DNA of 64,000 bases from Octopus vulgaris (Eukaryota). Numbering within the stretch: the first letter of the stretch is position 1; every line of letters starts with the position of its first letter. A program made the position numbers and the translations under genes. The stretch lies in contig OX597819.1 in assembly GCA_951406725.2 (NCBI GenBank), positions 109,988,001 through 110,052,000 of the forward strand, in the 5' to 3' direction. Shown piece after piece: positions 7,070 to 45,435 of the stretch. The notes under the pieces were generated by a model. The model saw only the letters and a program-made list of their open reading frames with translations, was not told where the DNA came from and searched no databases.

Positions 7070-7472
7070 GGGCGGTGAGCTGGCAGAAACGTTAGCACGC
7101 CGGGCGAAATGCGTAGCCGTATTTCGTCTGCCGCTACGTTCTGAGTCCAAATTCCGCCGAGGTCGTCTTTGCCTTTCATCCTTTCGGGGTCGATAAATTA
7201 AGTACCAGTTACGCATTGGGGTCGATGTAATCGACTTAATCCGTTTGTCTGTCCTTGTTTGTCCCCTCTGTGTTTAGCCCCTTGTGGGTAGTAAAAAAAT
7301 AGGTATTTCGTTTGCTGCTACGTTCTGAATTCAAATTCCACCGAAATCGACTTTGCCTTTTATCGTTTCAGGGTCGATAAATTAAGTACCAGTTTCGTAC
7401 TGGGGGCGGGGATTCTATCTAACCGACTGGTCCCCTTCCAAAATTTTCGGACATTTTGCCTATAATAGAAAT
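7070..7472 (+). mobile_element. Nested family-A SINE pair (Tx1-tailed copy followed by the 3' remainder of an alternative-tail copy)
   Basis: A/B-box head, core, tail ...GCCCCTTGTGGGTAGTAAAAAAATA, then a restart at GTATTTCGTTTGC with a second core and a different tail. Confidence 0.85.
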
Positions 7473-7536
7473 GTAATATAACCGAGTGTTACGGCGAATA
7501 GAAGGGTCACGATCTTAAATTATCTTTTGTTGTCAG

Positions 7537-7602
7537 CTCCAAAGACCAACTATCGGCGATCAATACTGCTTGGTTACCGTCCCGTTGATACCAGCCGATT
7601 CA
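7537..7602 (+). CDS. BCR/ABR-like gene, exon b (C2 domain)
   Basis: Acceptor ttttgttgtcag| and donor |gtaagt; 66 nt, phase 0-0, open: LQRPTIGDQYCLVTVPLIPADS. Length fits the segment missing between exons a and c. Confidence 0.7.
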
Positions 7603-8059
7603 GTAAGTGTTGCTACGTTGCTTCTTATTTGTTTATATTTATTTTCTTTTCCTGTCTCCTTTCCTCTTCTTTTGTTATTGTTATTTCACGTCAGGTCAGG
7701 TCCGTTGAAGCAGACCATTTAACGATACATTAAATGGCTTTCCCCACAGTCACCGTCCCGTCATTTTATCATTTTATCATATTATTTGATTTTCAGCCAG
7801 AATTGCCCATAGGTTAAACTTATCCAGTGAGTTAGGTCTCTATTTTGTTAAAAAAAACAAAACAAACCAAACAAAAAATCATTAAAAGTGCAGCCGTGGC
7901 TGTGTGGTATAAAGCTTGCTTCTCGACCACATGGTTCCGGGTTCAGTCCCACTGTGTGGTACCTTGGGCAAGTGTCTTCTCTTATAGCCTCGGGTCGACT
8001 AAAGCCCGTATATATATATATATATATATATATATATATATATATATATATATATATAT

Positions 8060-8708
8060 AATTCATAAATGAGGGCAAAGGAAAAAATTTCTAATGCCAA
8101 ATATGCCGAAAAATTGGACATATTGTCCATTAACCATATAATTTGTTCACAATACGCACGCTACTCGAAAAAAGGTCGACAAACATTTCTAAAAATTCCA
8201 TTATTACCATATCGGACCGATTTCAGAGTTAGCTACTAAGAGCCCTCTCTTCGTCAGTGATACATGTGGCAAAAGAAATAAATGAGATACTTACTCATGC
8301 CCATGGAAGAAGTATTTCTATTTTGGATGTATTTGGGGTACTTAGTTGTGCTCATGACTTAGTGTTTGCTTCTTCCATGGGTATGAGTAAGTATCTCATT
8401 TATTTCTTTTGCCACATGTATCACTGACGAAGAGAGGGCTCTTAGTAGCTAACTCTGAAATCGGTCCGATATGGTAATAATGGAATTTTTTAGAAATGTC
8501 TGTCGACCTTTTTTCGAGTAGCGTGCGTATTGTGAAAAAATTATATGGTTAATGGACAATATGTCCAATTTTTCAGCATATTTGGCATTAGAAATTTTTT
8601 CCTTTGCCCTCATTTATGAATTGTTTATAAATTTAACCGTTTAAGGTATTTTTTAATATGCTGGCCATTGATAAAATTTTTTTCGAAAGAAATTTTATCC
8701 TCATTAGA
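8060..8708 (+). mobile_element. Foldback Penelope-like pLTR element between (TA)n tracts
   Basis: Inverted arms 8060-8312 and 8369-8622 (about 4 substitutions and 1 indel), a unique 3' tail, and a hammerhead motif in each arm. Confidence 0.8.
8419..8476 (+). ncRNA. Type-I hammerhead ribozyme motif (mirror copy 8205-8262 on -)
   Basis: tatca CTGACGA agag...ctct GAAA tcgg t ccga TA tggta; stems I, II and III all pair. Confidence 0.8.
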
Positions 8709-8746
8709 TATATATATATATATATATATATATATACAGACACACA

Positions 8747-42900: not shown

Positions 42901-43336
42901 AGCTCGCAAGACATGGTAAACGTCAGTCGCCGACCTGTCCAAGATGCGGGGGGACAGGGAAACCGTCCCTCACGCTATTGTTCAGTGTCCGGAGATAACT
43001 GAAATGTGGGCTTATGCTGAACATCTGTTGTCCGGCGAAGGAAGAGTACGGCTGTCGACTGAGTCAATTATAAAAATTGACCCACCGGGAGTTCTAACGA
43101 ACGAAGGTAAGAATTGTTTTCTCACGGTTGTAGCAATAGCAAAAGAGGCTGTATGGAAGACTAGGATAAAAGGAATTAAGACAGGCAACTTTATCTCTGG
43201 TGACAATTTACGATCCTTTTTTTCTTTTCATTTGAAAAGGAAACTGTGGCTGGAGAAGGGGTGTCTGTCAGAGTGTACGTTCCAAAAGAGATGGAAGTAT
43301 GTTGTACGAGTGTTGTGTGTGCAAGGAACCGTGTGA
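39990..43336 (+). pseudogene. Tx1 ORF2 (APE endonuclease + RT + CCHC), several lesions
   Basis: EN motifs LNVHG, TET, LGDSN, YLDR, SDH. RT motifs KSPGLDG, FRPITLLN, DQSKAFDRV, RQGCPLSP, FADD. CPRC...HAIVQC. Premature TGA at 42294-42296 plus frameshifts. Confidence 0.92.
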
Positions 43337-43583
43337 ATAGACGAGGAAAAAAAAAAAAGGAAAAATAAAAAGGTATCAGCGGTAGATCGGGGCTTGTGGG
43401 ATCGGAGCGTAACTTGATCATCGCTTCATTTGTATTGTCTTTGTACTGTGTATTCCATTCCGATTTTTATGTATTGTATTTTATTTTTGATGTCACATTT
43501 ATGTAAAATCATATCGATTCACTGATCCCATCAGTTGTACTGTCCATATCTATGTTTGGCCCCCGGTGGGCAATAAAGAAATT

Positions 43584-43766
43584 CGTATTTCGTCTGCCGT
43601 TATGTTCCGAGTTCAAATTCCGCCGAGGTCGACTTTGCCTTTCATCCTTTCGGGGTCGATAAATTAAGTACCAGTTACGCACTTGGGTCGATGTAATCGG
43701 CTTAATCCGTTTGTCTGTCCTTCTTAGTCCCCTCTGTGTTTAGCCCCTTGTGGGTAGTAAAGAAAT
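43584..43766 (+). mobile_element. 3' half of the family-A SINE split by the Tx1 LINE (5' part at 38268-38298)
   Basis: The two parts join into the family consensus CGGGCGAAATGCGTAGCCGTATTTCGTCTGCCGTTA... Confidence 0.9.
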
Positions 43767-45065
43767 ATATATAGCAGCGTAGAAAACATTTTCCGTGTTC
43801 GGCAGGATGGTAGAATCGTTAGCATGCCGGAAAAAATGCTTAGCGGCTTTTCGTCCGTATTCACATTCTGAGTTCAAATTCCATCGTAATCGACTTCGCT
43901 TTTGATCCCTTTCCAGGGTCAAATAAGTACTAGCTGAGTACTCGGCTCGATGTAATCGCCTTGCCCCCACTCCCCAAATTGCTGGCCTTGTGTAAAAAAA
44001 TGAAACTAATATTCCATGTCGCAATTTTGCCGCGGTTATGTTTACTTTCCTTCTTCTTGTTTTCATAAAATGAAGTACCACGGCTGAGTCATGAAGCAGA
44101 TGTTTCCGGGTTCGACTCCCACTCGCAAAACATAAGACATCTTTCCAGATTCTATCATTATATGAGCATCACTACATGTGCTATAATGGTATATAGGGCA
44201 CAATAACGCAATCTATGCAGCTGTAAAAAGGGTACCACATAAAGTATAAACCATAGGGTTATCAACTGGAGTAACACCGGTACCTAGTACCCTCAGTAGA
44301 GTTTTCTCTGTTAGCAAGGAGTGTCTTCATCCTGGCTCCCGCACTAAGCCATAAGTAATCAACCAATTCGATGTCGATATGAGGGTAGTAGATTCGTAGA
44401 GTCGCATACATAGACACCTTCCTTGACCCCTCAACCTCGACTCCCTTTTTATGATGAGCTGAACGTCCTAACGAATAGGCTAAGTTGTTTCCCACCCATG
44501 GGATATTGGTGTTGATTGTCTTTTCTTTCCTCACTCTCCCTTCTGTCTCTGAGAATTGCCTCTCACCAGCAAGATCTTGTAGAGAAAATAAAATGCTCAA
44601 AGGAAGGTAACAGATAAACACTTCTGAAGATACCTGTGAAAATTTCGTAATGGGCGCAGTGTGCATTGTACTTATCAAAAATATCACCGGTGATCGTTCG
44701 TTAGCTTGATGGTGTTAGACGGAAAGGAATTGTAAAATATTTATTTTATCGATCTTGGAAGAATAAAAATCTAAATTAACTTCAGCGAATTTTGCCAGAA
44801 GAAGTAAGTTAGCAACATTTTAGAAACAAGGGTTTTAAGGTTAAGAGGTTCGTCAATATCATCATCCCCATTACTTGACTGGTATTGTATTTTGTCGTCC
44901 GAAGAAGGATAGAAGTGAAAGTTGACCGCGGTGGGATCTGAACGCAGAACGTGAACTAACAAAACAAAAATAAAATGATTATTTCTAACAGAGAACAACC
45001 AGACATATGGAGAGAGGAAGGAGGCGGGGTCAGCTGATTATATCGAGCTAATTTGATTGGTACTT

Positions 45066-45435
45066 AAGGCGGGGAGCTGGCAGAACCGTTAACGAAATGT
45101 GTAGCTGTATTTCGCCTGCCGTTACGCTCTGAGTTCAAATTCCGCCGAGGTCGACTTTGCCTTTCATCCTTTCGGGGTCGATTAAACAAGTACCAGTTAC
45201 GCACTGGGGTCGATGTAATCAACTTAATCCGTTTGTCTGTCCTTGTTTATCCCCTCAGTGTTTAACTCCTTGTGCGTAGTAAAGAAATAAACATTTCGAC
45301 GGACTTTACGTTTTGAATTCGACTTTACCTTTCGGGGTAGATAATATAAGTACTCGTTGAATACTAGAGTCGGTGTAATCGATTAGACCCCCTCCTCCAA
45401 AATTTCAGGCCTTGTGCTTATAGCAGAAAACGTCG
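45066..45435 (+). mobile_element. Nested family-A SINE pair, itself inserted in an opposite-strand SINE
   Basis: TSD TTTGATTGGTACTT at 45052-45065 and 45436-45449; internal restart after ...GTAAAGAAATAAA at CATTTCG. Confidence 0.8.

Follow-up and report, generated by a model that had tools for sequence, protein, structure and literature searches.

Tx1-tailed SINEs of Octopus vulgaris at a Tx1-like LINE target site in the head of their own family, with probable replacement of the target head

We describe here three SINE-in-SINE composites in a 64-kb window of the Octopus vulgaris genome, the window being the whole stretch of DNA that was analyzed. Our favored explanation, which we hold to be probable but far from certain, is that a Tx1-like LINE family targets the head of a SINE family, that SINEs carrying a Tx1-type tail have been inserted at this site, and that annealing of the incoming cDNA replaced the old head. 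What is seen in the sequence is a 3' junction common to a LINE and three SINEs, a common tail, and heads of the donor type. The evidence base is four events (the LINE and composites A, B and C) in this one window.

Each composite joins a young Tx1-tailed SINE to the remainder of a different SINE, as follows (SINE positions are numbered throughout with position 1 at window position 7071).

7071..7301, + strand: composite A, upstream half; full young SINE with A/B-box-like head, central body and Tx1-type 3' tail
7302..7472, + strand: composite A, downstream half; headless remainder, from position 48 to the end, of a different-tailed relative, the presumed target
24588..24819, - strand: composite B, upstream half; young Tx1-tailed SINE of a subfamily common to the upstream half of C and a further copy, E63
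24422..24587, - strand: composite B, downstream half; older different-tailed SINE from position 48
45068..45289, + strand: composite C, upstream half; young Tx1-tailed SINE with a 9-nt head deletion
45290..45430, + strand: composite C, downstream half; older SINE from position 48-50, part of the B-box region gone
45052..45065 and 45436-45449, + strand: left and right copies of the 14-bp outer TSD of composite C

A preliminary description had placed the three composites here and quoted the strings at which each restarts, and the letters bear out both. They also agree with it that each of A, B and C has one head and that each restarts at the TSD site of the LINE, resuming at position 48 (48-50 for C), the start of that TSD. 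If the last base of the tail is taken to be common to both sequences, the restart in A and B is at 48-49. The anchor string used in that description starts at 49, one base within the TSD. The outer TSD of C is perfect (14/14), and its left copy ends 2 nt before SINE position 1, indicating that replacement of the head took no flanking DNA. Composite C itself lies antisense within a still older member of the SINE family. Composite B has a candidate decayed outer TSD (12/16, a tentative call), and composite A has one extra G at its 5' boundary. Near-perfect TSDs are also found on other old copies (14/15 and 16/18, as best-window picks).

The LINE that defines the site lies within a SINE of the same family.

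38299..43583, + strand: near full-length, frameshifted LINE of the L1/Tx1 group, with ORF1 from 38432, an APE-like region at ~39987-40543, RT at 40518-42296 and zf-RVT near 42900
38268..38298, + strand: head fragment 5' of the LINE, SINE positions 31-61, of the young G43/C48 type, holding the left TSD
43584..43767, + strand: right TSD (43584-43597) and remainder of the host, a young Tx1-tailed SINE, 3' of the LINE

The TSD of the LINE is a perfect 14 bp (38285-38298 and 43584-43597) corresponding to SINE positions 48-61, and the element ends in a stem-loop tail without poly(A). A profile search of ORF2 matched RVT_1 with an E-value of 1.7e-29. Exo_endo_phos was found on a frameshifted piece at an E-value of 0.0039, below the curated cut-off, and both PF03372 and PF00078 are present in most full-length relatives of the element. 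An APE-type endonuclease followed by an RT is the ORF2 arrangement that marks the Tx1 clade. Against the PDB the RT matches LINE-1 ORF2p (E 2e-42) and R2 (2e-20), and a protein match named 'Transposon TX1 149 kDa protein' has an E-value of 4e-76. Judged on these comparisons the RT belongs to the L1/Tx1 group, and in an RT tree of 27 rows containing no curated L1 or Tx1 reference the LINE shares a starred clade with proteins of Argonauta and Acanthosepion. The ORF1 of Tx1-clade elements carries a CCHC zinc knuckle. For ORF1 of this LINE Pfam gave no match and there were Atlas leads only (0.85-0.90); directly after its end, in another frame, there is a C-x4-H-x4-C remnant. A Pfam scan of 136 ORF fragments from the window (148 of the 209 candidate ORFs being listed) gave transposon-type domains only, plus two weak matches. 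Further Tx1-like fragments (~35000-36630, 17950-18540 and 49570-49770) are too decayed for target sites to show.

The LINE and the SINEs have a 3' tail in common, as is characteristic of LINE-partnered SINEs. Identity between SINE and LINE tails is just 76-83% over 41 nt (31/41 for A, 34/41 for the free copy D), making this LINE a relative of the tail donor and at most a candidate for the donor itself. The consensus fold of seven tails has an identical 4-bp stem and 5-nt loop; the folding z-score of the stem is not significant, and it shows no double compensatory changes. Within the window no LINE matched as a partner for the old tail type.

Tx1-type 3' ends fall at SINE position 48 in four of eight cases in the window (the one LINE and 3/6 SINEs). 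The chance of three junctions each lying in a 3-nt window at the LINE-defined site is 3.4e-6 for a length of ~200 nt, and that of at least 3/6 lying at the site under random insertion is ~7e-10 if 14 family copies are assumed as targets, both figures presupposing independent events. The exact TSD of the LINE at the identical base supports the earlier proposal of insertion at a Tx1-preferred site; the enzyme would be that of this LINE family, and the preference would hold genome-wide. The preference is loose, with 4/8 of the Tx1-type 3' ends elsewhere in the window (those of D, the LINE host, E63 and a copy at 52149). Of the 14 bases just downstream of the nick, 5 in the older half of B and 6 in that of C differ from the LINE target, which is many for a sequence-specific endonuclease unless they are later changes or recognition lies upstream. 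Two copies outside the composites are relevant here.

37378..37598, + strand: copy D, free Tx1-tailed SINE of another subfamily, with an old-type T43/G48 head and a shorter tail
63409..63592, + strand: copy E63, headless Tx1-tailed SINE from 49-50, without a Tx1 tail upstream; ambiguous

Copy D had been cited as a sign that the preference is not absolute. It does lie outside the site, its flanks being unmatched in the window bar one 41-nt match within the 3' flank, and it has a 13-bp TSD (37366-37378 and 37599-37611). The claim needs refining in that the site appears to be near-cognate: at the empty site 5/6 bases around the nick match the SINE site, as they do at 0.28% of window positions, the 6-base width being the best of six tried. 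The start of E63, together with an old-on-old junction near 54646 that falls at SINE position ~41-46, indicates that 5' ends land near the head hairpin for other reasons too.

7102..7129, + strand: head hairpin, SINE positions 32-43 paired with 48-59, 4-nt loop (z -2.18 and -1.93)

The insertion site lies at the tip of this hairpin, on the first base of its 3' arm. The G-U pairs in the stem favor an RNA structure over a DNA cruciform; a cruciform as the nick signal was rejected, since even the best copies have G-T at 3/12 stem pairs. D and most old copies have U-G at pair 43:48, where A, B and the LINE host have G-C, and the target site and the RNA structure of the head may be co-evolving, with a U-G to G-C change of the closing pair in the young subfamily. 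Since the LINE is inserted into a G-C head, this change does not give full immunity. The 5' and 3' ends of the SINE head pair like an acceptor stem, and the A/B-box-like motifs were spotted by eye against the consensus; ARAGORN found 0 tRNA genes and Rfam no tRNA match, in the window or in copy D. As to Meta-, Ceph- and CORE-SINEs or the octopus SINEs OK, OR1 and OR2, short body motifs have no matching context in the searchable portions of the supplements of PMC4824008, PMC4758252 and PMC5786205.

The heads of A and B are identical (0/47 differences), while their downstream bodies differ at 19/91 positions (p 3.6e-4) and old heads are on average 27% apart. The upstream and downstream copies of positions 48-61 differ at 2, 6 and 6 of 14 bases in the three composites (14/42, p 1.5e-5 at the young-copy rate), and the upstream copies differ from the LINE host by 0, 1 and 2 bases. 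Of the young heads at the site, 4/4 have G43 (A, B, C and the LINE host), as against 0/8 of the old copies having a base there. By these bases, the single head and the upstream copy of the TSD are evidently of the donor type, the head of the target having apparently been lost, with the proviso that replacement reaches statistical significance in the A-B pair only (p 0.08 for A-C and 0.19 for B-C). The junctions also have the properties of an anneal junction, in that the donor 5' end is homologous to the sequence upstream, the common sequence is unduplicated and the flanks are intact. This upholds the earlier suggestion that the 5' junction was resolved by homology and sharpens it: the old head would have been replaced, not retained and spliced to a truncated donor.

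In the pathway that we propose, the preferred site of a Tx1-like LINE family would lie between the A- and B-box-like motifs of the head in an abundant SINE family, with nicks at 47/48 on the bottom strand and at 61/62 on the top strand. A SINE branch with a Tx1-type tail would consequently be copied by the Tx1 machinery into its own relatives. Target-primed reverse transcription would proceed to the SINE 5' end; the cDNA, homologous at its 3' end to target positions 1-61, would anneal there to the target strand upstream, and repair of the mismatched heteroduplex would favor the cDNA. A donor-type head in 3/3 composites would require such a biased repair step. The result would be one young head with its body and tail, joined to the old copy at position 48 and set between unchanged old flanks. 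For the LINE, which lacks such homology beyond the target, an ordinary TSD would result.

The same outcome could be reached in two steps, if targeted insertion first left the old positions 1-61 in tandem with a complete new copy, one of the two heads being removed by a subsequent recombination between them. Special integration chemistry is then unnecessary, the common 3' junction and intact outer flanks are accounted for equally well, and short-repeat deletions are seen in several heads of the window. We nevertheless consider this course unlikely. Two heads are kept in 0/3 composites, and after a random crossover within 1-61 both bases of the old type and private mutations would be expected on its 5' side, which is difficult to reconcile with the identity of the A and B heads.

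Annealing at the target must also be weighed against a chimera formed at the RNA level, in which RT copying an old-tailed SINE RNA stalls at the hairpin tip, or the RNA is cleaved there, with a jump or ligation to the 3' terminus of the RNA from a Tx1-tailed SINE and then a single insertion of the whole. Position 48 is suitably placed at the 3' side of the hairpin loop, the donor head and a TSD around the entire composite (as in C) follow without an extra step, E63 begins at 49-50, and template switching between SINE heads and tails is on record in the accessible text of PMC4494074 and PMC4824008. Such a chimera leaves unexplained both the two-sided TSD of the LINE at the identical base and the near-cognate site of D. 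It also needs three different decayed RNAs: runs of T4 occur in 3/3 downstream halves and in 0/6 Tx1-tailed copies (p 0.012), and these, with the partial loss of the B-box region in C, make the downstream halves look like long-decayed DNA rather than active RNA templates. The tentative outer TSD of B is decayed at 4/16 positions, above expectation for the age of its upstream half (p 0.03), and the perfect TSD of C is no sign of youth given those retained by other old copies. We therefore judge an RNA chimera to be a less likely explanation still. The possibility that C is a secondary copy of a read-through composite, raised by its perfect outer TSD, is not supported, for the same reason and because of the T4 run in its downstream half.

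Loss of the old head by target-site deletion, through an upstream second nick or resection and with no annealing, has a counterpart in oomycete Utopia elements, for which the available text of PMC4640811 describes loss of a 5' U2 fragment on insertion; the extra G at the 5' boundary of A might then be a scar of end joining. At this site, however, the second nick for the LINE is downstream, as its 14-bp duplication attests, and in C the deletion would have to end at the first bases of the head, flush with the old TSD. We regard this as quite improbable.

The preliminary description had noted that the upstream halves are alike and the downstream halves unlike, and the counts (14/231, 21/222 and 23/222 versus 36/162, 40/139 and 34/138) agree. 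Pairwise differences upstream and downstream are 6% versus 22% for A-B, 9% versus 29% for A-C and 10% versus 25% for B-C (Fisher p 4e-6 to 5e-4, with 4e-6 for A-B); at non-CpG sites alone they are 6-10% versus 21-27% (p 5e-5 to 1e-3). In trees of the halves, a check suggested at the outset, the upstream and downstream halves sit with different free copies. In the body tree the upstream halves of B and C group with the non-composite E63 (98/91), with that of A apart, and the downstream half of B groups with a free old copy (95/91), away from those of A and C; the terminal branch of A is 0.13 for its downstream and 0.03 for its upstream half. This tree is based on 102 columns, with the misaligned ends of the downstream half of A and of o26.5 masked and 3/21 units omitted (L_head, o6.2 and o45.5). 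It is not decisive on its own, as AU tests reject monophyly of neither set (p 0.14 downstream, 0.13 upstream). The unequal divergence and the tree placements together support independent insertions, from at least two donor subfamilies and into targets that differ among A, B and C. A single dimeric master (a young monomer with a headless second monomer, copied three times) would suit the AU result and the features common to A and B (a G-to-A change close to the end of the tail, identical first bases at the junction and downstream tails of similar type), but should have aged equally in both halves and has two upstream subfamilies to explain, one including a non-composite copy, and we reject it as very improbable. 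Deletion by microhomology between a tail and the next head was likewise rejected, as several extra head bases would then remain from the common short words, and by eye there are none.

The closest known parallel is in crocodilians, where Tx1-Mar LINEs and SINEU SINEs target Mariner-N4_AMi (Kojima 2015, PMC4494074). In the accessible text of that paper a Tx1 family counts as target-specific when >20% of flanks are of one sequence type, the preference is also partial (13-90% of copies), and independent insertion is likewise distinguished from hitch-hiking on a master. There too a Tx1-group LINE and the SINEs it mobilizes have common fixed positions inside an abundant repeat. That target, as described there, is an unrelated DNA transposon, and the link between LINE and SINE is through target and head, not tail; in our window the target belongs to the family of the client SINE itself, LINE and SINE have a tail in common, and the target head is apparently replaced. 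Other site-specific Tx1 families include Xenopus Tx1L in Tx1D, Keno in U2 and Kibi/Koshi in microsatellites (PMC4494074), and Mutsu in 5S and Dewa in tRNA-Leu spacers (PMC3706591). Our LINE resembles these as an APE-encoding element of the L1/Tx1 group whose short TSD lies at one particular base of a sequence present in many copies; among the targets given for them in the available text of the two papers, none is a SINE and none is mobilized by the same LINE. Our search, of the literature alone, found no precedent for a Tx1 target within its own client SINE family.

The proposed 5' junction is like the annealed, non-duplicated 'anneal' junctions of R2 in 28S rDNA (PMC3774820, PMC11331408), where, in the portions available, template 5' sequence is homologous to the upstream target and the cDNA 3' end pairs with it to give a seamless junction without duplication. 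R2 differs in its restriction-like endonuclease and in being transcribed together with a gene that hardly varies, from which its homology derives; in our composites it is the head of the SINE that supplies the homology, and variants of the donor can be seen to have overwritten a target that is 10-25% diverged. According to the accessible part of PMC4640811, Utopia in U2 snRNA genes also has a constant 3' junction within a small-RNA-like sequence, and in oomycete copies the 5' part of the target is missing; it differs in endonuclease class and in having neither a homologous donor head nor a client SINE. Tandem SINE arrays in the bivalve Scapharca are similarly head-to-tail, with one complete head and later units cut at the same position, but in the available text of PMC11481361 their units are near-identical and ascribed to recombination, whereas the halves here differ in family and age and the junction is the TSD of a LINE.

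If our interpretation is correct, the client SINE family itself would be a new class of Tx1 target, and a homology-annealed 5' junction, studied mainly in R2, would be seen on diverged natural targets with the donor winning. The evolution of LINE target choice is a further point of interest, an APE-type endonuclease here appearing to act on a fixed site with some tolerance, within a repeat that is dispensable. The process would offer a direct route to the head/tail mosaics and apparent dimers of SINEs that are usually ascribed to template switching. With SINEs making up 11.6% of the Octopus vulgaris assembly and L1-Tx1 ~56 Mb, according to the accessible text of PMC13282606, it may happen often and may cause repeat libraries to list dimeric families wrongly. 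More tentatively, and with doubt outweighing belief, the main genome-wide target of this cephalopod Tx1 lineage may be the head of the SINE family that it mobilizes, each event overwriting an old head and promoter with those of the current master. If true, this would be target-directed head conversion, turning over one of the commonest repeats of the genome.

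Three composites in the window share one kind of SINE-in-SINE junction, and the pattern is real and non-random. In each, the sequence of a relative from SINE position 48 (position 1 of the family being window 7071) directly follows a Tx1-type tail, with the restart at 48-49 in A and B and at 48-50 in C. The elements concerned are:

7071-7472: composite A, Tx1-tailed SINE plus remainder of a different-tailed relative
24819-24422 (minus strand): composite B, likewise
45068-45430: composite C, likewise
37378-37598: D, free Tx1-tailed SINE
63409-63592: E63, headless Tx1-tailed SINE
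38299-43583: Tx1-like LINE
38268-38298 and 43584-43767: LINE host, the SINE interrupted by the LINE

The LINE lies within a young Tx1-tailed SINE and exactly duplicates SINE positions 48-61 (TSD 14/14), bearing out the preliminary description, in which the junctions recur at the LINE target site. The chance of three junctions at this LINE-defined site is about 3e-6, if the events are independent. Position 48 accounts for four of the eight Tx1-type 3' ends in the window (the LINE, A, B and C), the remaining four being those of D, E63, the LINE host and, at 52149, a tail of a different kind. The TSD of D is 13 bp long (14 bp for the LINE), and its empty site shares 5/6 bases round the nick with the SINE site (background 0.28%; six was the best of six widths tried), which fits a loose endonuclease preference. 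As had been proposed, the preference is not absolute. The different 3' end (52097-52149, plus strand) is Tx1-like, shares 76% identity with the SINE tail across 50 nt and is directly followed by a long TATC repeat, which suggests a second, microsatellite-associated family.

Among named proteins, the nearest to the LINE RT come from Argonauta hians (61% across roughly half of the query; 47% across three quarters of it), together with one from a cuttlefish; all are members of its starred clade in the tree and point to a cephalopod, probably an octopod, as host. The LINE belongs to the L1/Tx1 group and likely to Tx1 proper. Its tail is 76-83% identical to the SINE tails over 41 nt, which makes it a relative of the tail donor and at most a candidate for the exact donor. 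The head of the LINE host starts where the hairpin stem does, at position 31, and no outer TSD was found; this head is possibly that of a truncated host, or else derives from the target and was carried at the LINE 5' end. The profile search aligned the terminal 16 nt of the LINE (43568-43583) with SINE positions 32-47, which immediately precede the target nick: the first four bases agree and stand in the same register to the junction, possibly through chance or partial re-creation of the site.

The window is animal-type DNA of 39% GC, rich in repeats and with many microsatellites; no host gene was recognised within its 64 kb. A profile search to E 0.1 gave 27 SINE family matches, a number of them very weak, and no named family was found to match the SINE. 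Six copies carry the Tx1-type tail (the upstream halves of A, B and C, D, the LINE host and E63), the remaining matches being fragments or copies with other tails. A full SINE of old type (43768-44005, plus strand) starts 32 nt past the tail of the LINE host, and further tandem members of the family occur at 48790-49227 and 5645-6000. A 5S rRNA-like segment (63770-63865, plus strand; 60.5 bits, Rfam gathering score 38, model 14-109), with another SINE head within ~30 nt downstream, is either a pseudogene or a 5S-derived SINE head. Other repeats are:

35000-36630 (minus), 17950-18540 (plus), 49570-49770 (minus): decayed fragments related to the LINE's Tx1-like RT lineage
14139-18298, 970-3175 (minus), 23357-23788 (plus), 32532-33512 (minus): decayed pieces of other LINEs (RT, zf-RVT matches) and of a Tc1/mariner-type transposase (HTH, DDE_3 matches)
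8047-8635, 32169-32300, 56449-57000, 58314-58791: long self-complementary elements (inverted identity 90%, 100%, 75%, 87%)
5539-5739 / 6034-6235: direct pair, 96.5%
20764-21094 / 45921-46249: direct pair, 95%
55534-56191 / 60423-61091: inverted pair, 90%

The fragment at 35000-36630 contains an old SINE fragment (36183-36070). The self-complementary elements, all flanked on one or both sides by AT-rich runs, are MITE-like fold-backs, and the three pairs are either recent local duplications or other repeat families.

The claim of independent insertions is upheld by the divergence of the halves. Upstream halves differ at 14/231 (A-B), 21/222 (A-C) and 23/222 (B-C) positions, downstream halves at 36/162, 40/139 and 34/138 (Fisher p 4e-6, 5e-6 and 5e-4; at non-CpG sites only, 8e-5, 5e-5 and 1e-3). 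A single dimeric master predicts equal divergence of its halves and is rejected by these values. In the body tree (SINE positions 62-163) the upstream halves of B and C form a starred clade with the non-composite E63, A's lying outside, and B's downstream half pairs with a free old copy; constraining either set of halves to monophyly was not rejected (downstream p 0.14, upstream p 0.13), and the conclusion therefore rests on the divergence contrast rather than on topology. The upstream halves sit on terminal branches of 0.03-0.04; those of the downstream halves measure 0.13 (A), 0.16 (C) and 0.02 (B), the last with a further stem of 0.07 in common with its free old copy. A T4 run in the shared body occurs in 3/3 downstream halves, 0/6 Tx1-tailed copies and 4/7 other old copies. 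By sequence, the downstream halves look older.

The surviving heads are of donor type. Had a truncated donor been linked to the old head by way of the TSD, the head and both 48-61 copies would be target-type. This is rejected: upstream and downstream copies differ at 2, 6 and 6 of 14 positions (A, B, C), and comparison with the LINE host shows 0, 1 and 2 differences for the upstream ones. The A and B heads are identical over 47 nt and their targets differ at 19/91 (p 3.6e-4); G43 is present in 4/4 young heads at the site and 0/8 old copies. The whole-head test for C was not significant (p 0.08 and 0.19), so its case rests on positions 43-61; only 2 nt separate its 14-bp outer TSD from position 1, so the flank is intact. 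The insertion site stands as first described, and the 5' junction is refined in that the old target head appears to have been replaced by the donor's.

The common 3' junction, LINE TSD geometry, shared tail, independent targets and donors, and donor-type heads form the sequence-level evidence for a mechanism. It is established for TPRT and Tx1 target choice that the endonuclease sets the 3' junction (PMC4494074). Full-length SINE cDNA would then anneal to the homologous upstream head of the target, and the heteroduplex of cDNA and old head would be resolved toward the cDNA. For R2, templates homologous to upstream 28S sequence are described as giving seamless junctions in vivo (PMC3774820, PMC11331408), in passages that do not mention donor variants overwriting the target. 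Later collapse of a two-headed intermediate is unlikely, on three cases only. Two points argue against targeted insertion: the downstream halves of B and C fit the LINE target poorly immediately past the nick (mismatches at 5 and 6 of 14 positions), and the LINE is no more than a candidate for the exact tail donor.

The SINE head also contains a 12-pair hairpin, and position 48 is the first base past its loop. The many G-U pairs of the stem indicate RNA structure; pair 43:48, formerly U-G, is G-C in the young subfamily. E63 starts at 49-50 with no Tx1 tail upstream, and at 54823-54330 (minus strand) an old-on-old SINE junction near 54646, also lacking a Tx1 tail, falls at head position ~41-46 with short microhomology. 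RNA-level chimeras could therefore arise if the tip of the hairpin were a hot spot for RT stalling or RNA cutting. We consider this improbable because it leaves the two-sided TSD of the LINE unexplained and requires three decayed templates. The second SINE copy of 54823-54330 is further interrupted by another repeat at ~54533-54380.

Searches of open-access PMC and bioRxiv, screened mostly by title and abstract start, gave nothing on a Tx1 family that targets its own client SINE family or on this octopus LINE/SINE system. The system resembles Tx1-Mar/SINEU in Mariner-N4, with fixed sites in a repeat common to LINE and SINE and partial preference (PMC4494074), and R2 in its anneal-type junction (PMC3774820, PMC11331408). 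It combines Tx1-Mar/SINEU-like working with an R2-type anneal junction and is a member of neither. A, B and C are best explained by site-preferring insertion that recurred within the element's own family and replaced the old head; counting the LINE, the evidence comprises four events from a single window.
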